This document shows, in pieces, positions 25,595 to 34,353 of a stretch of DNA of 64,000 nucleotides (position 1 is its first letter; each line of letters begins with the position of its first letter). The translations under genes were made by a program, and so were the position numbers. The DNA is from Pirellulales bacterium (GTDB lineage: Bacteria > Planctomycetota > Planctomycetia > Pirellulales > PALSA-1355). The stretch is from assembly GCA_041741015.1 (NCBI GenBank), contig JBGSKX010000006.1:2495-66494 (forward strand), read 5' to 3'. Below the pieces are notes generated by a model that made no database searches, was not told where the DNA came from, and saw nothing but the letters and a program-made list of their open reading frames with translations.

Positions 25595-27358
25595 TCAGTT
25601 CGCGGCTTCGGGATCTTCGACACGCACGATTTGAGCATCGAATAATTCAGTCGCTCGGCGAACCATGGCGTGCTCTTTCAGTTCGGCCACGCGTTGCCTT
25701 TGCGGAGCCGCGCGGCGTACCTGGGCCGCAGCCTGATGGGGTTCGTCCGCAATCGTAGCAAACTCAAGCTTTACACGGCCGCCCGCGACGCTTGAAAGTG
25801 CCTGTTCAATCTCGGCTACCTGCCGCTCGCAGAACGCTCTGCAGGCAGTATACTTCGCGCGAAATGTAGCGACCAGCCGATTGCCGCCAGGCGCGCTTGC
25901 GCTTTCACAGAAGTCTGCGTTCTGATGCAACAGCCCTTCGAGGCTGGCGAGCGCGGCATCCCAGATGCGTTTAGCATTCCCACTCGTCACTTCGGCCGGC
26001 GGTAGCGATGCGGAGGTTAATGATTGCGGCGTCGCTGGCTCGCTGTCCGCTGACTCTGATTGGGGTGAGACTGGCTCATGTTTTTTTTTTGCTGCCAGAT
26101 CGGACACCGCGGGGACATTGCTAGGAGTAGCGCTCGGCCTGATCGGCCCAGTTGATACAGGCAGGCCGCCGGTTTGCAGTCCCTGGATCAACTCCGAAAG
26201 GTCGTCGAGGTTCTCAAGACTCGCGATCCGCACCAGGGCCATTTCGACCAGGGTGCGCGACTGCGTACTGTAGCGCATCCGCGAGAGGGTGTGATCGATG
26301 ATCTGCATGATCGCCAAGACGGATTCCAGTCCGGCGCCTCTCCCCGCTTCCGCAAGGTACGCGTGTTGTGCAGGAGCGGTATGCAGCAGTGCCTCGGCCG
26401 GGCAGCCGACGGCAGAGACCATAACGTCGCGAAAGTAGCCCAGGAGTTGTTCAAGCAGTTGGCCGACGTCAACGCCTTCACTGGCGGCGGAATCCAGATC
26501 GGCGATGGCCGCCGCGGCATCCCGCCCGAGCAGGTGATCGACCAGCGTGGTCAAGCGAGCTTCACCAGCCGTGCCCAAGAGCGCATGGACGTCGGCCGCC
26601 GTGATTCGCGCCCCACCGATCGCCAGAATCTGCTCCAAGAGCGACTGGCTGTCGCGCATCGAACCGGCCGCCCGGCGGGCCAGAATGGTAAGTGCCTCGG
26701 GCTCCGCCTCAACACGCTCGGCCGAGACGATCTGCGAGAGTCGCTCGACGATCGAGGCGATGTGAATCCCCGCGAAGTCGAACCGCTGGCAGCGCGAGAG
26801 GATCGTGATCGGAATCTTCGATGCTTCGGTCGTGCAGAAGATGAATTTCACATGCTCAGGCGGTTCCTCGAGCGTCTTGAGCAAGGCGTTGAAAGCCTCA
26901 CGCGTGAGCATGTGGACTTCGTCGATAATGTAAATCTTGAACCGTGCCCGGCTCGGCCGGACATTCACGTTCTGGCGGAGCGAGCGAATTTCGTCAATGC
27001 CGCGGTTGCTGGCACCGTCAATCTCGATGACGTCGACGTCGGCGCCGGCCGTGATGTCACGGCAGATCTCGCACTCGTTGCAAGGTGTGGCCGTGGGGCC
27101 GTGAACGCAATTCAGCGACTTGGCGAGAATCCGGGCGGACGAGGTTTTACCAACACCACGAGCACCGGTGAACAGGTAGGCGTGACCGACTCGACCGGCG
27201 GCGATGGCGCCTGTCAGCGCTCGGGCGACGTGATCTTGCCCGATTAGCTCGTCAAACGACTGGGGCCGATAGCGGCGGGCAACGACCACGTACTCGCCGG
27301 AACGGGGAGCGTCACCGGCTGAGTTATCGATCGGAGGTTTTCCAGCCGGAGCGGCCAT
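25595..27358 (-). CDS. dnaX: DNA polymerase III subunits tau/gamma (DnaX)
   Basis: YRPQSFDELIGQDHV, GARGVGKTS (Walker A), the zinc module CNECEICRDI, IIDEVHML and TRCQRF. Start chosen at the ATG at 27358 (MAAPAGKPP...). The track extension to 27511 runs into the SRP RNA. Confidence 0.9.
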   Translation of the reverse strand: MAAPAGKPPIDNSAGDAPRSGEYVVVARRYRPQSFDELIGQDHVARALTGAIAAGRVGHAYLFTGARGVGKTSSARILAKSLNCVHGPTATPCNECEICRDITAGADVDVIEIDGASNRGIDEIRSLRQNVNVRPSRARFKIYIIDEVHMLTREAFNALLKTLEEPPEHVKFIFCTTEASKIPITILSRCQRFDFAGIHIASIVERLSQIVSAERVEAEPEALTILARRAAGSMRDSQSLLEQILAIGGARITAADVHALLGTAGEARLTTLVDHLLGRDAAAAIADLDSAASEGVDVGQLLEQLLGYFRDVMVSAVGCPAEALLHTAPAQHAYLAEAGRGAGLESVLAIMQIIDHTLSRMRYSTQSRTLVEMALVRIASLENLDDLSELIQGLQTGGLPVSTGPIRPSATPSNVPAVSDLAAKKKHEPVSPQSESADSEPATPQSLTSASLPPAEVTSGNAKRIWDAALASLEGLLHQNADFCESASAPGGNRLVATFRAKYTACRAFCERQVAEIEQALSSVAGGRVKLEFATIADEPHQAAAQVRRAAPQRQRVAELKEHAMVRRATELFDAQIVRVEDPEAAN

Positions 27359-27411
27359 CGCAACTCGAGAGGGGGCATCATGCACAAAGCAGCGTGGGGC
27401 AGAATAGACCA

Positions 27412-27552
27412 AGGCCCGCGGTAGCGACCTCGGATGAGAGACCCATCGCACAAAGAGATGACTGCTTATGGCTGCTGACTTTCGTCCCTGACCAGGTTCG
27501 CAGGTCCCCATTGCGAGGGCCTCTCATCGGAGGCCGCCAGGCCGCGAGGAGG
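27412..27552 (-). ncRNA. ffs: Signal recognition particle RNA (small bacterial 4.5S type); ends approximate
   Basis: The minus strand reads CCUGGUCAGGGACGAAAGUCAGCAGCCAUAAGCAG. This matches the remembered E. coli 4.5S domain IV, CCAGGUCAGGUCCGGAAGGAAGCAGCCAAGGCAG, with a GNRA tetraloop and the AGCAGCC loop. The flanks pair into one long hairpin (CCUCCGAUGAGAG with CUCUCAUCCGAGG, CGCA with UGCG, CUGC with GCAG). It lies directly upstream of dnaX on the same strand, as in the Bacillus scr-dnaX-yaaK-recR arrangement. Confidence 0.78.
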
Positions 27553-27839: not shown

Positions 27840-29852
27840 ATGAGAGTCGCTAGATTCTGGAAGTGGACCGCCGTGGTCTTCATGACGGTGCTGCTGGCGC
27901 TGCCTGAGAGCACAGCCTGGGCTCAACGAGGGGGCGGCAGCCGAGGCGGCGGAAGTGGTGGTCGCAACAGTGGTGGCGGTGGCGGCGGAGCACGCTCGAT
28001 GGGCGGTGGGGGCGGCGGAAGTCGCAGTTTCTCGTCACGCGGCGGCGGTCCGTCGGTGTCTCGTAGCGGCAGCGGTTCGTCGATGTCACGCGGCTCGGCG
28101 CCGAGCATGCGTGGTTTTTCTTCCTCGAATCTCGGTGGCCGATCGGGTGGTTCACCCTCTAGTTCGCGCAGCTTCTCCGCTCCGAGTCGAAGTTCTACGC
28201 CCAGCGTGCGGAGTTTTTCCGGTTCCGGCGGTCGCTCGTCGATGAGCGAGAGCCGTAATCCCAGTTCGATCTCACGCTCGCCCAGCATGCGCGATTTCTC
28301 GGCTGGTAATCTCGGACGGTCGATTGACCGCGGCAGTGCTGGGCGTTTGGCTTCGCCGGGCGGCGGGCGAAGTTCGTCGGGGAATCCAACGGTGCGATCT
28401 GGCGGCTCGCCGGAATCTCGAAACTTCGCCGATCGTAACTTCTCATCGAGGAGCAATCTGACGCAAAGCGGCGGGCCGCAGCGCAACGCCAACCAGCGGT
28501 TCGAGGCCAACCGCCAGAATCTCGGGAACATCAGCCGAGGACCATCACGCGGCAACACCGTAGGGGCGGCTACTCCCGGTCGCACGGACGGAAATCGGTC
28601 CGATTTTGTCGCTCGCAACTTCGGCTCGACAAGAAACCCGATCCGCGTAGGCGATGGAAATGGACGGCCAGGTTCACCGGGCGATGACTTTCGCCGTGGC
28701 GATGGCAATCGCGGTGATTGGACTCGAGGCGATGGTAATCGGGGAGACTGGAATCGGGGCGAGTGGGCCCGCGGCGACGGCAATCGCGATGGAAATCGTG
28801 GAGGCGACTGGAATCGCAATAACAACTGGAACCGTGGCGATTGGGGCCGTAACGACTGGAATCGCGGCGACTGGGGAAAGAACAACTGGGGTCGCACCGA
28901 TTGGAACCGCCACGGTTGGAATCGGTGGGGCAACAGCTGGAACCACGGCTGGAATAATAATTGGAATAACAACTGGTGGGGAGGTAATCGTGGCTGGTGG
29001 GGCTACGGACGAAATGTCTGGTGGACCCCTGGCTGGAATAACTGGGCCTGGGGTTGGGGGTGGCCACTCATCGGTTGGAACAATTGGGGATTGGGTTGGG
29101 GGCTCGGCTGGGGCTTAAGTAACGTCGGTTGGGGCGGTTACGGTTACCCCACGTATTACGACACTACCTACGTTTATCCCACAACGACGCTCTACGCGGA
29201 CGCGACCGACGTGATTGTTCCCCAAGCACAGCAACCGGCGCTCGACCCGCTGGCAACCACGGGCGACTTCGTGTCCGATGGCGAAGCGGCGTTTCGCGCC
29301 GGTCGCTATCAAGACGCGCTTCGGTTGTGGCAACACTCGATGGTCGACGATCCGGACAATGGCGCGGTTGTGCTGCTGATGGCTCAGGCCCTGTTCGCGC
29401 TCGGCCAATATCAGTCGGCTGCAAACGCGACCCAAATGGGCATGCAAATGCTGCCGGAAACCGAGTGGGGCAATGTTGTTCGTAATTACACCCAGCTCTA
29501 CGGCAACATCGAGGATTACACCAACCAGGTGCGGGCAGCGGAGAAAGCTCGCGACACGCGAGCGGACGACGGGGCAGCGCGGTTCCTGCTCGGTTTTCAC
29601 TTCGGGTACTTGAACTATCCGAAGCAAGCCGTGCGTGAGCTGGATGCGGCGCTGGTGATCGAACCTCGCGATGTGGGGGCGGAAAAACTTCGCGACATCT
29701 TCGCCGCTCAAGCGGGGATGCCCGCCCGACCGCACACCGCGCAGCCCGCCGATGGACAACCGGCTGGTGGTGCTCCGGCTCCCGGCTCGCCAAGGCTTGG
29801 CCCAGATCAGAAGCCCGTCACGCCGCCGGCCCCGGTGGGTACGGATGCCTAA
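27840..29852 (+). CDS. Secreted low-complexity protein: signal peptide, Ser/Gly/Arg-rich repeats, Trp/Asn/Gly-rich repeats, TPR-like C-terminal domain
   Basis: Signal peptide MRVARFWKWTAVVFMTVLLALPESTAWA. It is the longest ORF at this locus (670 aa). The C-terminal part (GEAAFRAGRYQDALRLW ... ALFALGQYQSAANA) looks like TPR helices. The 349 aa antisense ORF reads as a mirror of the repeats. Confidence 0.75.
   Translation: MRVARFWKWTAVVFMTVLLALPESTAWAQRGGGSRGGGSGGRNSGGGGGGARSMGGGGGGSRSFSSRGGGPSVSRSGSGSSMSRGSAPSMRGFSSSNLGGRSGGSPSSSRSFSAPSRSSTPSVRSFSGSGGRSSMSESRNPSSISRSPSMRDFSAGNLGRSIDRGSAGRLASPGGGRSSSGNPTVRSGGSPESRNFADRNFSSRSNLTQSGGPQRNANQRFEANRQNLGNISRGPSRGNTVGAATPGRTDGNRSDFVARNFGSTRNPIRVGDGNGRPGSPGDDFRRGDGNRGDWTRGDGNRGDWNRGEWARGDGNRDGNRGGDWNRNNNWNRGDWGRNDWNRGDWGKNNWGRTDWNRHGWNRWGNSWNHGWNNNWNNNWWGGNRGWWGYGRNVWWTPGWNNWAWGWGWPLIGWNNWGLGWGLGWGLSNVGWGGYGYPTYYDTTYVYPTTTLYADATDVIVPQAQQPALDPLATTGDFVSDGEAAFRAGRYQDALRLWQHSMVDDPDNGAVVLLMAQALFALGQYQSAANATQMGMQMLPETEWGNVVRNYTQLYGNIEDYTNQVRAAEKARDTRADDGAARFLLGFHFGYLNYPKQAVRELDAALVIEPRDVGAEKLRDIFAAQAGMPARPHTAQPADGQPAGGAPAPGSPRLGPDQKPVTPPAPVGTDA
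28680..29180 (+). repeat. In-frame degenerate short repeats encoding the RGDGN / GDWNR / WNN / GWG tracts
   Basis: Reiterated ggcgatggcaatcg, gactggaatcg and ggctgg units. The translation is RGDGNRGDWTRGDGNRGDWNRGEW...NWNRGDWGRNDWNRGDWGKNNWGRTDWNRHGWNRWGNSWNHGWNNNWNNNWWGG...GWGWPLIGWNNWGLGWGLGWGL. Confidence 0.8.
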
Positions 29853-29879
29853 AGCATTTTAGTCACCTTGAAACGTTAT

Positions 29880-29918
29880 GCCCGCTGCTGAGGTCTCTTG
29901 GCAGCGGGCATTTGTTGC
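29880..29918 (+). terminator. Rho-independent terminator candidate
   Basis: Stem gcccgctgc / gcagcgggc followed by atttgttg, about 30 nt after the stop at 29852. Confidence 0.55.
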
Positions 29919-29939: not shown

Positions 29940-30635
29940 TCACTCGCCGGGGGTGGTGACCAGCAGTTTTTCGGCAGCCGCCTGACCAAGTGTCGTTTCC
30001 GCCCCAGCAATCCGCACGGTGATGACGCCGCCTTCGGGTGTGTTGGCAATCACTTCTCCTGCCACACCGAGGGGTAAACCTGCGTTGCTCAAAAAACGCA
30101 GGAACTCGGGCGACTGGTCAATGACGCGCGAGAGCTGGAAGGTGTCGCCGACCTGGCACTCGGCCAGCGAACGGCTCTTGGGGACTTTTAGCGTGCCATC
30201 GGAGCTTGGAATCGGGTCGCCATGAGGATCGGCCTCGGGGTGGCCGAGGAACGCGTCGATGCGGTCGATGAGGCGATCGCTCACCGCATGTTCCATATGC
30301 TCGGCTTCTTCGTGGACTTCGTCCCAGCTGAGATCGAGCGTCTTGACGAGGAAAAGCTCGATAAGGCGGTGCCGCCGCACAACGCGGAGCGCCAGGGCCG
30401 AGCCGGCGCCTGTGAGCCGCACGCCCTCGTACGGCGTGTACGTGACCAGCTTACTCTCGCTGAGAGTTTTAAGCATGCTGGTTACTGTGCCGGGCGATAC
30501 TCCCAGGGCCGTAGCTAACTGCCCAGTCGCGGCATGGCCGTCGCTGGTATGGCAGATCTGGTAGATCGATTTGATGTAGTTCTCGACCGTCAGGCTTGGC
30601 AAGGCCGCCTCCCCGCACTTTCGACGTCTGCGCAC
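29940..30635 (-). CDS. DtxR/MntR-family metal-dependent transcriptional regulator with a C-terminal FeoA/SH3-like domain
   Basis: LTVENYIKSIYQI, the winged HTH ATGQLATALGVSPGTVTSMLKTL, the metal-site region EVHEEAEHMEHA..HPE.DPHGDPIP, and the C-terminal GDTFQLSRV. Confidence 0.85.
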   Translation of the reverse strand: MRRRRKCGEAALPSLTVENYIKSIYQICHTSDGHAATGQLATALGVSPGTVTSMLKTLSESKLVTYTPYEGVRLTGAGSALALRVVRRHRLIELFLVKTLDLSWDEVHEEAEHMEHAVSDRLIDRIDAFLGHPEADPHGDPIPSSDGTLKVPKSRSLAECQVGDTFQLSRVIDQSPEFLRFLSNAGLPLGVAGEVIANTPEGGVITVRIAGAETTLGQAAAEKLLVTTPGE

Positions 30636-30791: not shown

Positions 30792-31742
30792 GTGCGTCCC
30801 TTAAACGAGCTTGCTCACGAATTGTGCGAACAACTGGTAGCCGAGGCTGCCGACTTGCGCGTTTCCGTCGCACAGTCGGGTAACGGCGTGCGACTGATCG
30901 ATTGCGGAATCACTGCCTCTGGCGGTTTGGAAGCTGGCCGACGACTGGCCGAGATCTGCCTTTCGGGACTGGGGCAAGTCAGCTACGTGCCGTCGCAATT
31001 GGCGGAAACCCCGGGCTTGGCGGTGCAAGTTGTCACGGATCGTCCACTCGAAGCCTGCATGGCTTCGCAGTATGCCGGCTGGCAGATCGCCGAAGGCAAA
31101 TACTTCGCGATGGGATCGGGTCCGATGCGGTCGCTTGCTCGCAAGGAGCCGCTGTTCGCCAAGATTGGATATCAGGAGTCTGCGAAAGTAGCCATCGGAG
31201 TGCTGGAAACCAGCAAGGTTCCGCCAGACGAGTTGTGCCACAAACTGGCGGAGGAGTGCGGCGTCTCGCCTGAAAAGCTCACATTGCTCATGGCGTCCAC
31301 TGCGAGCCTGGCCGGCATGGTGCAGATCGTCGCCCGAAGCGTCGAAACAGCGATGCACAAGCTGTTTGAACTGGGCTTCGATTTAGCACGCGTCGAGAGC
31401 GGCTTCGGAACGGCGCCGCTGCCGCCGGCATCTGCAGATAACCTGGTGGCGATTGGACGTACCAACGACGCAATTCTGTACGGCGGTGAGGTGACGCTGT
31501 TCGTGCGCGGCGATGACGCCAGCCTCGAGCAACTCGGCCCCAAGGTTCCCAGCGGTGCGTCGTCCGATCATGGGCAGCCGTTTGCCGCGATCTTCGCACG
31601 TGCGGGGCAAGATTTTTACAAGATCGATCCGCACCTGTTCAGTCCTGCACGGATCGTGCTTTCGAACCTGGACACGGGCCGCACGTTCGCGTTCGGTCGG
31701 ACGTTGCCACGGGTGATTCACGAATCTTTCGATCTGCGGTAG
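30792..31742 (+). CDS. mch: Methenyltetrahydromethanopterin cyclohydrolase (Mch)
   Basis: About 316 aa with LIDCGI, GGLEAGRRLAEICLSGLG, SQYAGWQI, FAMGSGPMRSLA, GRTNDAILYGG and DFYKIDPHLFSPA, as remembered for the methylotroph and planctomycete Mch. Confidence 0.85.
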   Translation: MRPLNELAHELCEQLVAEAADLRVSVAQSGNGVRLIDCGITASGGLEAGRRLAEICLSGLGQVSYVPSQLAETPGLAVQVVTDRPLEACMASQYAGWQIAEGKYFAMGSGPMRSLARKEPLFAKIGYQESAKVAIGVLETSKVPPDELCHKLAEECGVSPEKLTLLMASTASLAGMVQIVARSVETAMHKLFELGFDLARVESGFGTAPLPPASADNLVAIGRTNDAILYGGEVTLFVRGDDASLEQLGPKVPSGASSDHGQPFAAIFARAGQDFYKIDPHLFSPARIVLSNLDTGRTFAFGRTLPRVIHESFDLR

Positions 31743-31753
31743 GTGCGAATCTC

Positions 31754-32635
31754 ATGCACTTTGCCGTTCTCTGCTCACCGACGAGCTGGTATTTACAGGA
31801 CCTGCGCCGAGCGGCCGCTGGGGACCACGAGCTCACGCCGATTGCATTTCGCGACCTTGCTGCCGAGCTGGGGCCGTCTGGTCCGCGATTCATCGCGGGA
31901 GGTCTCGATCTTGCGGCCGTCGACGTGTTACTGGTCCGGACGATGCCGCCCGCATCGCTCGAGCAGGTTGTGATGCGAATGGACGTCCTGGGGCGACTTG
32001 AAGCGGCAGGAACGCTGGTCGTCAACTCCGCCCGGGCAGTGGAAGCCGCGGTGGACAAGTACCTGGCGAGCGCGAAGCTCGCTGCAGCAGGACTGAAGAC
32101 TCCCGAAACCATTGTGTGTCAGACCGTCGACGCAGCCATGGAGGCGTTTGCCCGCTTGGGCGGAGACGTGGTGCTGAAGCCGCTGTTTGGCGGCGAAGGT
32201 CGTGGAATCGCGCGGCTGGAAGATGAGGCGATCGCCCAACGCACGTTCAGCCTGCTCACCGGACTGGGGGCCGTGCTTTACGTGCAGCGGTTCGTCCCCC
32301 ATGATGGATGGGACATTCGCGTGCTGGTGGTCGGCGAGGGGATGTGGGCGATGCGGAGACGTAACCCGCTTGATTGGCGGACCAATGTGAGCCGCGGGGC
32401 GATAGCCGAGGCGATTGAATGCGATCCGCACTGGGCTCAACTGGCGCGGCGCGCGGCCGATGCGATTGGCGCCGTGATTGCCGGAGTCGATTTGCTGCCT
32501 GGCCGCGATCATGAGCTACACGTAATTGAAGTTAACGCGGTGCCTGGCTGGCAGGCGTTGGCGCGAACGCTGGAAGTCGACATCGCCCGCGAAGTACTCG
32601 ACTATGTTGGCGGGCAGGTCGCGAGGCAACAGTAA
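31754..32635 (+). CDS. ATP-grasp ligase of the RimK family (H4MPT-cluster associated, MptN-like)
   Basis: ATP-grasp blocks VVLKPLFGGEGRGI, YVQRFV and DIRVLVVG are present, and IEVNAVPGW follows them. The gene starts 12 nt after the mch stop. Confidence 0.75.
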   Translation: MHFAVLCSPTSWYLQDLRRAAAGDHELTPIAFRDLAAELGPSGPRFIAGGLDLAAVDVLLVRTMPPASLEQVVMRMDVLGRLEAAGTLVVNSARAVEAAVDKYLASAKLAAAGLKTPETIVCQTVDAAMEAFARLGGDVVLKPLFGGEGRGIARLEDEAIAQRTFSLLTGLGAVLYVQRFVPHDGWDIRVLVVGEGMWAMRRRNPLDWRTNVSRGAIAEAIECDPHWAQLARRAADAIGAVIAGVDLLPGRDHELHVIEVNAVPGWQALARTLEVDIAREVLDYVGGQVARQQ

Positions 32636-32661
32636 CCGTAGGCCAACGAGCGAAGTGATTC

Positions 32662-34353
32662 ATGTCCCGCGTGACGAACTCGACGGCGATTGCTGCTGTG
32701 CCCGCGCCCGTGAACGTAGCGCGGCGGTTGGCGGCAATGGCCGAGCGTATGCCGGGCGCGGTTGCCGTTGCCGTGCCGCGAAAAAGTCGGGGCCGGTTCG
32801 CGTACGACAGGTGCACGTTCGCGGAACTCGAAGCGGAGACAAATCGTATCGCGAGTGGCCTGCGCACATTGGGCGTCACGCCCGGGACGCGGATCGCGCT
32901 GCTCGTCAAGCCAAGCCGCGAATTCATCGCGCTGGTGTTCGGACTGTTCAAGGCCGGTGCGGTGATCATCCTGATTGATCCGGGCATGGGGCGGCGCAAT
33001 CTGCTGCGCTGTCTGGCCGATGCCGAGCCGGCAGGTTTCATTGCAATTCCTGCTGTGCATGGGCTGCGCCGCCTATTGCGATCGCGTTTCCCCAAGGCGC
33101 GGTTCAATGTCACGGTCGGGCGGCGGCTGTTCTGGGACGGAATTACTTACGCCGAGCTGCTCGAGCTGGGTTCATCCAAGCCGACATGCCAGGAGACCTC
33201 GGCCGACGATCCCGCCGCGATCATTTTCACCACAGGCAGTACGGGACCTCCCAAAGGCGTACTGTACCGCCATGGGAACTTCGACCGCCAGGTGAGAGAG
33301 ATCTCCGAGTTTTACGGAATTCAGCCGGGAGAGATCGATGTACCCGGCTTTCCACTTTTCGGGCTGTTTAATGCGGCGATGGGTGTGACGACGGTCATTC
33401 CCATCATGGACGCCTCGCGTCCCGCGCGCATCGATCCCAAGAAGTTCGTGGCCGTCGTGCAGGACTGGCAAGCCACGCAGTCGTTTGGCTCGCCGGCGAT
33501 TTGGAACCGCGTCGGCCAATACTGCGAAAAGCACAACGTGCGGCTGCCGCTGCAGCGTGTGATATCGGCCGGAGCGCCGGTGCCACCCCACGTGCTGGCG
33601 CGTATGAAAGCGGCGATCGCTTCGGACGGCGACGTGCATACCCCCTACGGAGCCACCGAGGCATTACCCGTCGCGTCGCTCTCGGCCAGCGAGATCTTGT
33701 CCGAAACGCGCCATCATTGGGCTCAGGGTGGGGGGACCTGCGTCGGCGGCCACTTTCCGGGCATCCAGTGGAAGATCATCGCGATCACGGATGAGCCGAT
33801 CGAATCGATCGACGACGTGCGGGAGCTTCCCCAAGGACAGATTGGCGAAATCATCGTCACGGGGTCGGTGGTCACACACGAGTATGTGACTCGCCGCGAA
33901 TCGAACGCCCTGGCGAAGATTTCCGACGGCCCACGCGTCTGGCACCGCATGGGGGACGTTGGCTATCTGGACGAGCGTGGCCGCTTTTGGTTCTGTGGCC
34001 GGAAAGCTCACCGGGTAGAAACCACGCACGGACCGATGTACTCGATTCCCTGCGAAGCGATCTTCAATCAGCATCCGGTAGTATACCGCTCAGCGCTCGT
34101 GGGCGTCGGGCAGACGGGTAAGCAGCGGCCGGTGATCATTGTCGAGCCATGGCCGGGAATGCGGCCACGCTGGCGAAAGGCGCGTGAAGCACTCATTGTG
34201 GAACTCGCACAGCTCGGTAAAGCGAATCCACTGACCGTTTCCATAGAGCAGTTTCTGATACACCCGGCGATGCCGGTGGACATTCGGCATAACGCCAAGA
34301 TATTTCGCGAGAAGTTGGCTCCCTGGGCGGCTCGCAAACTGGGATGGCACTAA
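32662..34353 (+). CDS. AMP-dependent synthetase/ligase (fatty-acyl-AMP ligase / OleC-like beta-lactone synthetase family)
   Basis: Adenylate-forming core motifs FTTGSTGPPKG, YGATE and GDVGYLDERGRFWFCGRK. It is followed, with a 10-nt overlap, by an OleD-like reductase. Confidence 0.8.
   Translation: MSRVTNSTAIAAVPAPVNVARRLAAMAERMPGAVAVAVPRKSRGRFAYDRCTFAELEAETNRIASGLRTLGVTPGTRIALLVKPSREFIALVFGLFKAGAVIILIDPGMGRRNLLRCLADAEPAGFIAIPAVHGLRRLLRSRFPKARFNVTVGRRLFWDGITYAELLELGSSKPTCQETSADDPAAIIFTTGSTGPPKGVLYRHGNFDRQVREISEFYGIQPGEIDVPGFPLFGLFNAAMGVTTVIPIMDASRPARIDPKKFVAVVQDWQATQSFGSPAIWNRVGQYCEKHNVRLPLQRVISAGAPVPPHVLARMKAAIASDGDVHTPYGATEALPVASLSASEILSETRHHWAQGGGTCVGGHFPGIQWKIIAITDEPIESIDDVRELPQGQIGEIIVTGSVVTHEYVTRRESNALAKISDGPRVWHRMGDVGYLDERGRFWFCGRKAHRVETTHGPMYSIPCEAIFNQHPVVYRSALVGVGQTGKQRPVIIVEPWPGMRPRWRKAREALIVELAQLGKANPLTVSIEQFLIHPAMPVDIRHNAKIFREKLAPWAARKLGWH

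Follow-up and report, generated by a model that had tools for sequence, protein, structure and literature searches.

An exported planctomycete protein with a tryptophan-rich low-complexity tract ahead of a TPR domain: member of a large uncharacterised family and possible envelope scaffold

The window analysed in this study is the whole stretch of 64,000 nucleotides of a Pirellulales contig. Its subject is an ATG-started open reading frame (ORF) at 27840-29852 on the forward strand, which the ORF list of the window gives as 670 codons plus stop. The gene encodes a protein with an export signal, a low-complexity region that contains an extreme Trp-rich tract, and a C-terminal tetratricopeptide repeat (TPR) domain. 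Sequence comparison places this protein in a large family of paralogs, and structure prediction tentatively points to a self-associating scaffold of the cell envelope. The gene is divergent from the signal recognition particle (SRP) RNA at 27430-27528 (minus strand), which lies upstream of dnaX on the same strand, as an earlier reading of the DNA from its letters alone (the sequence-only reading) had stated. The features are given below with positions in the window and residues of the window protein. Loci of other genomes carry L numbers and family proteins P numbers, dN/dS is the ratio of nonsynonymous to synonymous substitution rates, pI the isoelectric point, and pLDDT the predicted local distance difference test score of AlphaFold2 (AF2).

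27840..29852, forward strand: complete coding sequence, from the ORF list, with orthologs at the same position in L001, L002 and L004 and dN/dS well below 1 in all regions
27840..27926, forward strand: Sec-type signal peptide, residues 1-29, with R2, R5 and K8 in a basic n-region, the hydrophobic core TAVVFMTVLLAL, a cleavage-type site A-W-A/Q and no lipobox Cys
27927..28679, forward strand: Gly/Ser/Arg low-complexity head, residues 30-280, with RGGG runs and eight R-x-F(S) units, AF2 pLDDT mostly below 50, the least constrained region
28425..28442, forward strand: first F[VA]xRNF motif, FADRNF, residues 196-201, a motif that recurs in the family
28605..28622, forward strand: second F[VA]xRNF motif, FVARNF, residues 256-261, conserved without change in L007, L001 and L008, carried with F256 and F261 by the peptide NRSDFVARNFGST, and a candidate TPR-domain ligand
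28680..28979, forward strand: RGDGN/RGDWN units and W-N tract, residues 281-380, with period-5 x-[D/N]-W-[N/G]-R units, then period 4
28980..29144, forward strand: G-W block, residues 381-435, reading WWGGNRGWWGYGR...WGWGWPLIGW...GLGWGLGWGL, with anchors that are invariant in alignment A4
29145..29261, forward strand: Tyr/Thr junction and linker, residues 436-474, containing YPTYYDTTYVYPTTTLYADA, with Y-P...Y-A-D anchors invariant in alignment A4
29262..29714, forward strand: TPR domain, residues 475-625, about ten helices, acidic (net charge -7, pI 4.7), family-defining
29715..29849, forward strand: Pro/Ala tail, residues 626-670, with the C-terminus G-T-D-A
29878..29911, with a U-rich run to 29917, no strand assigned: G+C-rich terminator hairpin of 15 bp, followed by UUUGUUG, between convergent gene ends

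The low-complexity region shifts in composition along its length. In the head, Ser (62), Gly (57) and Arg (36) account for 62% of the 251 residues, the net charge is +27 and the pI is 12; six R-x-F-S units (residues 62, 91, 110, 124, 151 and 199) and two further R-x-F units run through it. Residues 281-380 contain, per 100 residues, 24 Asn, 21 Gly, 17 Trp, 16 Arg and 13 Asp, with the W-N run at residues 329-380. The G-W block that follows has 18 Gly and 14 Trp in 55 residues; every second residue is Trp in WAWGWGW, GLGW is repeated, and WAWGWGWPLIGWNNWGLGWGLGWGL is found at residues 402-426. The R-x-F-S beat of the head and the passage from RGDGN/RGDWN to W-N and G-W units had been described from the sequence, and all strings quoted for them were found in the translation, as were the Tyr/Thr patch and the Pro/Ala tail. 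In total, the protein has 36 Trp, five His and no Cys. The 138 residues from 294 to 431 hold 31 of the Trp (22%), while Trp makes up 1.2% of the window's other long ORFs, and the probability of at least 31 Trp in 138 residues is about 6e-29 at a background of 1.3%. The count is thus about two and a half dozen, against the several dozen estimated by eye for about 150 residues. Trp recurs every five residues seven times, with successive spacings of 5, 5, 5, 5, 5, 5, then 4, 4, 4, 4 and finally 2, 2, 2.

A spurious ORF, or a repeat tract distorted by mis-assembly, could be suspected here, as low-complexity G-rich DNA also yields long shadow ORFs in other frames and many family members are cut short by gene callers. 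However, three other independent assemblies keep 29-34 of the 36 Trp together with the signal peptide and the frame, dN/dS lies between 0.05 and 0.33, and hundreds of homologs exist. The tandem repeats in the coding DNA have a period of 15/30 nt, 64-88% matches and 2-6 copies; because they are short and diverged, a collapsed perfect array is unlikely, and together with the agreeing orthologs they led us to reject recent tandem expansion or mis-assembly as an explanation at the DNA level. As far as sequence can show, we consider the chance of an artefact to be practically negligible. The sequence-only reading had itself reckoned with an ORF that has no homologs or with repeats made by the assembly; neither was found, since homologs are abundant, selection is purifying and independent assemblies agree. 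The ORF is a genuine gene and an export signal is present. The A-W-A/Q site is kept in orthologs, AF2 predicts a signal-peptide helix at residues 4-19, and 57 of the 68 full-length members of the family have a comparable junction, in which [R/H/Q]GGG comes after a small-x-small site, which upholds the earlier view of a secreted protein.

Two shadow ORFs on the minus strand, 27923-28972 (349 aa, Pro/Arg-rich) and 28570-29067 (165 aa, Ser/Arg-rich), overlie the part of the gene that codes for low-complexity sequence; they are not genes but arise from its GGN/CGN/TGG codon bias. An exact look-up of the window protein sequence returned no record in the public gene index, so that the window stems from a genome related to, but distinct from, those indexed. 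Many public gene calls, among them P0002, P0010 and P0011, begin at Met/Val codons inside the gene (L001 9413-11575, L002 9569-11320, L004 9701-12259), and the true frames in L001, L002 and L004 run 140-200 codons further 5', to a signal peptide and the onset of RGGG. Because the called genes start internally, both the signal peptide and the poly-Gly head are missing from the database entries. Gene callers thus systematically truncate the N-termini of this family, and databases under-represent its signal peptides and low-complexity heads.

The orthologs in the L001, L002 and L004 contigs lie between dnaX/SRP RNA and a convergent gene for a DtxR-family repressor. The closest locus is L007, from a Pirellulales MAG (metagenome-assembled genome), whose C-terminal domain is 97% identical to that of the window protein. 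In L007, L001 and L008, respectively, the Trp tract is 92%, 85% and 71% identical, and 34, 34 and 29 of the 36 Trp are kept. The tract is reproduced in three other assemblies, and among orthologs it differs only by substitutions and by the in-frame gain or loss of whole units, such as an additional WNHGWNNHW. In a codon-level analysis, dN/dS against the same three loci was 0.12, 0.05 and 0.10 for the Trp tract, 0.15, 0.07 and 0.07 for the TPR domain, and 0.33, 0.13 and 0.26 for the head, the values for L001 and L008 being rough as dS exceeds 1 (saturated). By these comparisons the Trp tract is under purifying selection comparable to that on the TPR domain. In the last approximately 90 residues ahead of the TPR domain, the anchors W-G-Y, G-x-G-x-P-x-x-G-W, P-x-x-Y, Y-P and Y-A-D are invariant (alignment A4), and they hold in relatives down to 48% identity within that block. 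Judged from the alignment, the G-W block belongs to a positionally conserved module ahead of the TPR domain, and the constraint on this module exceeds mere composition. A 22%-Trp tract that in one clade appears to be constrained like a folded domain challenges the view of such tracts as only compositionally constrained.

The first homolog search gave 45 proteins, and the C-terminal domain was present in all 45 (E 1e-105 to 6e-08). With the window protein as reference sequence, the signature of this domain reads HAMVDDPxNG...LFAxGQY...EWGxVVxNYxxLY...YTxQ...RFLLGYHFGYLxYPKQAVxELD. A profile of the domain matched at least 501 cluster representatives (50% identity) at E<=1e-30, and a profile scan of GTDB species-representative genomes gave 149 loci. 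Titles and full ORF reconstruction cover the best 80 of these 149 loci, and composition statistics cover 68 full-length members. Among the best 80 of 149, the titles are from Planctomycetota (Pirellulales, Planctomycetaceae, Schlesneria, Planctomicrobium) with two exceptions, one untyped 'uncultured bacterium' MAG and one Actinomycetes-labelled contig. For the family member L051 (CAVPGO010000032.1, 62% identity), whose contig was assigned to an 'Actinomycetes' MAG, faulty binning is more probable than genuine presence outside the Planctomycetota. Up to three copies occur per genome, and several genomes have three. On the sequence evidence, the window protein belongs to a large, uncharacterised, paralogous family that was found here only in Planctomycetota MAGs. 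The sequence-only reading had been made without this family context, and the comparison indicates that the tract is not a unique invention. Literature searches aimed at exported planctomycete proteins of a Trp-rich, Gly-Tyr-rich or FG-like kind turned up no account of the family.

As reconstructed from the alignments, the family plan has eight parts: a signal peptide; a poly-Gly head with Arg or His; a Ser/Asn-rich spacer with one to three F[VA]xRNF motifs; period-5 x-[D/N]-aromatic-[N/G]-[R/K] units; a positionally conserved aromatic/Gly block; a 'YP..TTT..YAD' junction; a TPR domain of four to five repeats; and a Pro/Ala tail. The window protein has the same succession of signal peptide, poly-Gly/(R or H) head, aromatic-Gly block and C-terminal domain. 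Several branches vary or extend this plan. Family members above approximately 57% identity keep a G-T-[D/P/E]-[A/S/T] C-terminus (residues 667-670 of the window protein, 29838-29849; GTDA, GTEA, GTPA or GTPS in the tails of L001-L030), an ending that resembles a C-terminal ligand of PDZ or tail-specific-protease type. A sub-branch (P0008, P0011, P0047; L004, L017, L018, L047, L058) has two tandem family TPR domains and an Asp/Arg/Pro-rich head (RDRDRD...) instead of a Gly/Ser-rich one. In distant relatives (P0029-P0031, P0034-P0044 and L005; Isosphaeraceae-like and others) an additional C-terminal domain of about 100 residues ends in DDPGLxFxR; it matches TIGR03066 (Gemmata paralogous family) weakly, at 27.5 bits against a cut-off of 93.

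In most members, the aromatic-Gly block at the equivalent position reads FFPFFGYGLGYGLGYG(GGY)n. In the 68 full-length members, the region ahead of the TPR domain has a median of 4.5 Trp (range 0-35), 22.5 Tyr and 14.5 Phe, and the coefficient of variation is 0.26 for Trp, Tyr and Phe taken together against 1.17 for Trp alone. Trp and Tyr are inversely correlated (Spearman -0.73), as are Arg and His (-0.74). Among 190 family proteins, the median of the maximum per 138-residue stretch is 4 for Trp and 33 for the three aromatics together, and at least 25 Trp are reached only in the window's clade (P0001-P0004) and in the distant P0125. Because the total aromatic load is stable, Trp trades against Tyr and the relatives have a GGY block in the same place, the Trp tract can be read as the lineage's version of the family block. 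Within a family that requires an aromatic-Gly block, the extreme Trp content thus reflects which aromatic residue this lineage uses, with Trp replacing the Tyr/Phe of most relatives at an approximately constant aromatic load. The family thereby offers a natural experiment in sticker chemistry, with Trp, Tyr and Phe exchanged, Arg and His exchanged and the aromatic load constant. Two distant members, P0125 and P0142, have Trp-rich tracts of other design, GWGWSGGWGWGGWG and repeated RWAWRHPW units; therefore, by sequence, Trp enrichment arose more than once, and these two members suggest at least three independent gains. Used alone as a homolog query, the Trp tract gave one match, a truncated ortholog; composition-bias filters make this query uninformative on tracts outside the family.

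The exchange of Arg and His also bears on the idea that the repeats, rich in Gly/His in paralogs and in Asp/Asn, bind divalent metals, so that the protein would act as a periplasmic metal buffer or sensor linked to the DtxR/MntR-type neighbour. Many paralogs begin with (HGGGG)n and have 20-55 His, HGGGW-type units recall the copper-binding octarepeat of the prion protein, and the DtxR-family repressor gene with its FeoA domain is directly downstream and convergent in four loci. However, the window protein has only its five His and carries Arg where paralogs have His, which speaks for a charge or spacer role, and the regulator gene is convergent, not co-transcribed, with the synteny gone in distant members. 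A role in metal handling is thus very improbable.

Structure prediction was run twice, with the full protein (44-row alignment) and with residues 1-470 without the TPR domain (28 rows). The first AF2 run was confident for three parts only: the signal-peptide helix, residues 475-625 and an island at residues 251-262. Residues 475-625 are predicted to form about ten helices (residues 477-624) with pLDDT 93-98. In Pfam, TPR_19 (31 bits, cut-off 25) and TPR_2 (28.8 bits, cut-off 27) match residues 481-534, and Foldseek aligns the predicted fold with consensus TPR, MamA and OGT at probability 1.0, E of approximately 1e-5 and 15-20% identity. By sequence and predicted fold, the C-terminal domain is thus a member of the TPR superfamily, in line with the TPR-like helices that had been noticed. 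A PDB sequence search with it returned consensus or designed TPRs only, and in NCBIfam the window protein and five homologs gave only generic TPR matches, far under the cut-offs. The earlier statement that no described domain resembles the Trp tract also holds, as none was found in Pfam, NCBIfam or the PDB. Separate Pfam searches with the tract and with the G/S/R head at E<=10 gave nothing but a meaningless GETHR match of 8.8 bits, and a PDB profile search with the module ahead of the TPR domain gave nothing at E<=10.

The C-terminal 150 residues resemble generic TPR scaffolds, MamA of the magnetosome and designed consensus TPR arrays in being a TPR alpha-solenoid of four to five repeats. Like MamA, it is small and stands alone as a TPR module, and it could serve in self-assembly or in the binding of peptides. 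However, MamA is cytoplasmic and the window protein exported, the similarity is generic (15-20% identity), and neither MamA nor the generic scaffolds have the 445-residue low-complexity N-terminal region. Assignment to MamA itself was rejected (NCBIfam NF040959, 35.3 bits against a cut-off of 200). So was assignment to the pilus-assembly TPR proteins PilF/PilW or TadD, names that JGI gives to some homologs: TIGR02521 was not listed for the window protein at E<=0.1 and scores 17-20 bits in homologs against a cut-off of 154, the protein has no Cys and hence no lipobox, and five genomic contexts contain no pilus genes.

For the Trp tract, AF2 gave pLDDT 29-40 in the full-length run and 35-43 without the TPR domain, with essentially no secondary structure. 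This lends no support to the aromatic-ladder beta-solenoid that the sequence-only reading had offered as one option. In a broader form, the tract might be a folded or ordered beta assembly beyond the reach of AF2, such as a silk-like (Gly-X)n sheet, a functional amyloid or a Trp-stacked beta-solenoid. Its regular spacing (period 5 seven times, then 4, then 2) would suit such an assembly, as would the alternation of Gly with aromatic residues or Leu in WGWGW and GLGWGLGWGL and in the GLGYGLGYG of relatives, a dN/dS equal to that of the folded domain, the invariant anchors, and the D/N directly before the aromatic residue in the period-5 unit, as in pentapeptide repeats. Against it stand the absence of predicted strands in both runs, the empty PDB profile search, the unit-number indels in close orthologs, which would shift the register of a solenoid, and the small number of period-5 units (approximately 14, several of them lacking an aromatic residue). 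We therefore regard an ordered beta assembly as quite unlikely. Pentapeptide repeat proteins (PF00805) share with the tract the five-residue period, with a small residue at position -2 and Asp/Asn at position -1 relative to the central hydrophobic one; however, here the period drifts to 4 and then 2. A pentapeptide-repeat beta-helix was rejected, as residues 271-447 gave no PF00805 match at E<=10 and no strands were predicted, a negative prediction being weak evidence.

The third confident part of the first AF2 run, the island at residues 251-262, is the motif SDFVARNF. In the full-length run, which includes the TPR domain, it reaches pLDDT 77 and is predicted to be helical at residues 256-260; in the run without the TPR domain its pLDDT falls to 40 and the helix is lost. 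In these models, the predicted order of the motif depends on the TPR domain. Because the island vanishes from the prediction without that domain, AF2 appears to place FVARNF on the TPR domain. The charges of the two ends are complementary, the head being strongly basic (+27) and the TPR domain acidic (-7), and some two thirds of the 68 full-length members carry between one and three copies of F[VA]xRNF.

On these grounds we propose that the protein is a multivalent, self-associating envelope scaffold, a reading that we hold tentatively and with slightly less than even confidence. It fits best because the protein is exported and combines a cationic and aromatic region that has no predicted fold with an acidic domain of peptide-binding type and a motif that is predicted to be ordered only with that domain. 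After export, the low-complexity region of approximately 445 residues would remain largely unfolded and would act as a multivalent sticker-and-spacer polymer, with Trp/Tyr/Phe and Arg as stickers and Gly/Ser/Asn as spacers. The aromatic and Arg stickers would give cohesive contacts, while the acidic TPR domain would bind F[VA]xRNF of the same or a neighbouring molecule and so give directional head-to-tail links. From these contacts together, a cohesive network or gel of linked molecules might arise in the periplasm or on the cell surface and could serve as an envelope scaffold. Self-association, the exact location, the contact between the TPR domain and the motif, and the biological role are thus what we infer for the window protein. 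Extracytoplasmic condensation has a precedent, as CsgF, a curli accessory protein of E. coli, has been reported to form a condensate at the cell surface (doi 10.1101/2022.10.20.513119). If the mechanism is true, the family would represent a widespread, genetically encoded low-complexity scaffold outside the bacterial cytoplasm, of which very few examples are known. The phylum concerned has an unusual envelope and periplasm, of which there is little molecular understanding.

Several points weigh against the scaffold. Low pLDDT does not prove disorder, and in this region the alignment has little depth and is difficult to construct. The comparison behind the docking of FVARNF used differing alignments (44 against 28 rows) and no contact map, so that docking is deduced, not seen. 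About one third of the 68 members lack the strict F[VA]xRNF motif, though some have F-x-x-[RH]-H-F variants. No conserved operon partner points to a pathway, and synteny is confined to a close clade. The tract is strongly conserved position by position, which one would not usually expect of a purely compositional sticker-and-spacer region and which hints at a specific fold or partner. The saturated dS of two of the orthologs, given above, belongs here as well.

A specific partner could be a glycan. In that case the tract, with Tyr/His in paralogs, would bind peptidoglycan strands, holdfast, exopolysaccharide or imported glycans through aromatic stacking and hydrogen bonds, while the TPR domain recruits a protein partner. 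The tract is built almost solely of W, N, G, R and D, and these residues, together with the Y and H of paralogs, are the ones most enriched at sugar-binding sites. In the 68 members, Trp rises with Asp (Spearman +0.66) and Asn (+0.55), as if the whole binding chemistry co-varied, and a defined ligand would suit the strong positional conservation. In general, periplasmic TPR proteins often act in peptidoglycan or exopolysaccharide machinery. However, no carbohydrate-binding module of Pfam was matched, no folded binding site is predicted, no glycan-related genes are conserved alongside, and the W-for-Y exchange fits a generic aromatic requirement equally well. A glycan-binding tether is therefore unlikely, if still worth weighing.

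The G-W block could also be a membrane-interface anchor, which would hold the TPR domain at the outer or inner membrane by partitioning into its interfacial zone. On the Wimley-White interfacial scale, residues 381-435 add up to -24 kcal/mol, and all other segments are unfavourable; the 19-mer WAWGWGWPLIGWNNWGLGW alone reaches -12.9. The hydrophobic core [FY]P..GWG.G.P[LF][LI]GWGLG is conserved family-wide, and as the window protein has neither a transmembrane helix nor a lipobox, membrane retention would need another means such as this. Nevertheless, no amphipathic or transmembrane helix is predicted, the Kyte-Doolittle mean is -0.56, and most of the Trp (residues 294-380) lie amid Arg, Asp and Asn with an unfavourable partitioning energy of +10.6. 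We give this anchor little credence.

The proposed scaffold finds counterparts in the sticker-and-spacer RGG (Arg-Gly-Gly) domains of FUS and hnRNPA1. Both have Gly/Ser/Asn spacers, spaced aromatics, Arg-rich RGG stretches and predicted disorder, and in both the number of aromatics is kept while their identity and the exact sequence drift, here across the family. By composition, with aromatics spaced by Gly/Ser/Asn and RGG stretches, the window protein falls into this class, which is a functional class and not a homologous family. Over residues 265-474 the AF2 pLDDT is below 50 and positional conservation is high, the latter being atypical for the class. In contrast to FUS and hnRNPA1, the protein is bacterial and exported, uses Trp instead of Tyr, and has a tract that is positionally conserved and under strong purifying selection within its clade; there is no homology, and outside the cytoplasm no nucleic-acid partner is expected.

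The FG (Phe-Gly) nucleoporins and the GW (Gly-Trp) repeats of GW182 type are disordered, as the low-complexity region of the window protein probably is, and share with it Gly-flanked aromatics (GW/WG here, GFGLFGLYGLG in paralogs), an attached alpha-solenoid and multivalent hydrophobic hooks. However, the compartment differs, the sequences are not homologous, and no partner comparable to a pore or to Argonaute is known here; the analogy is compositional only. By this analogy, it is tempting to speculate that the family forms a cohesive, selectively permeable hydrogel or condensate in the unusually large planctomycete periplasm or in surface structures. It would be built from a TPR anchor, GW/GY/GLFG-like repeats and an RGG head, networked through TPR-F[VA]xRNF contacts. 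Such a material would correspond, outside the cytoplasm, to the FG-nucleoporin phase, and in this lineage Trp would provide the cohesion. We consider this extension of the scaffold improbable.

Among structural proteins, the paralogs' (GGY)n and (GL/GY)n and the (G-W/L)n of the window protein resemble plant glycine-rich proteins, high-Gly-Tyr keratin-associated proteins and silk GGY/GX, but those are eukaryotic, have no TPR domain and rarely contain Trp. The YTV cell-wall proteins of Planctomycetes are also exported and Planctomycetota-specific, and the window protein has a local Tyr/Thr/Val-rich patch, YDTTYVYPTTT. However, YTV proteins are cysteine-rich (PMC8567305), and the window protein, with 0 Cys and no Pfam YTV match at E<=1, was rejected as one of them.

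Around the gene, the hairpin at 29878-29911 has a deltaG of -33.3 kcal/mol (z -4.97) and none of 200 shuffles was as stable, so that the gene has the terminator that had been read from the sequence. As it lies between convergent genes, it is probably a bidirectional terminator. The convergent gene at 29940-30635 (minus strand), which uses the same hairpin, encodes a DtxR/MntR-family metalloregulator with a C-terminal FeoA domain. This pairing is kept in L001, L002 and L004 and lost in distant family members. The wider order NrdR, bPH_2, sigma-54, RecR, YbaB, DnaX, SRP RNA, window gene, DtxR-like gene and MCH is found in close relatives only and is lost in L005 and L006; the conservation of gene order reflects shared ancestry, not functional linkage. 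On the other side of the gene, the longest ORF for dnaX (25595-27511, minus strand, 638 aa) overlaps the SRP RNA, and ybaB and recR then follow in related loci. The true start of dnaX is probably the ATG at 27358, which gives 587 aa compared with 586 aa in homologs. Beyond the regulator gene, a co-directional cluster at 30792-34353 and onward (forward strand) is conserved in L001, L002 and L004 at 12.3-22 kb. It contains genes for MCH (methenyl-tetrahydromethanopterin (H4MPT) cyclohydrolase), a RimK-like ATP-grasp protein, an AMP-binding enzyme, an NAD-dependent epimerase/reductase, a ketoacyl synthase, an acyl carrier protein (ACP) and two amine-oxidase/desaturase-like flavoproteins. Potentially, this cluster may represent an unexplored lipid or polyene pathway beside a gene for one-carbon (C1) transfer.

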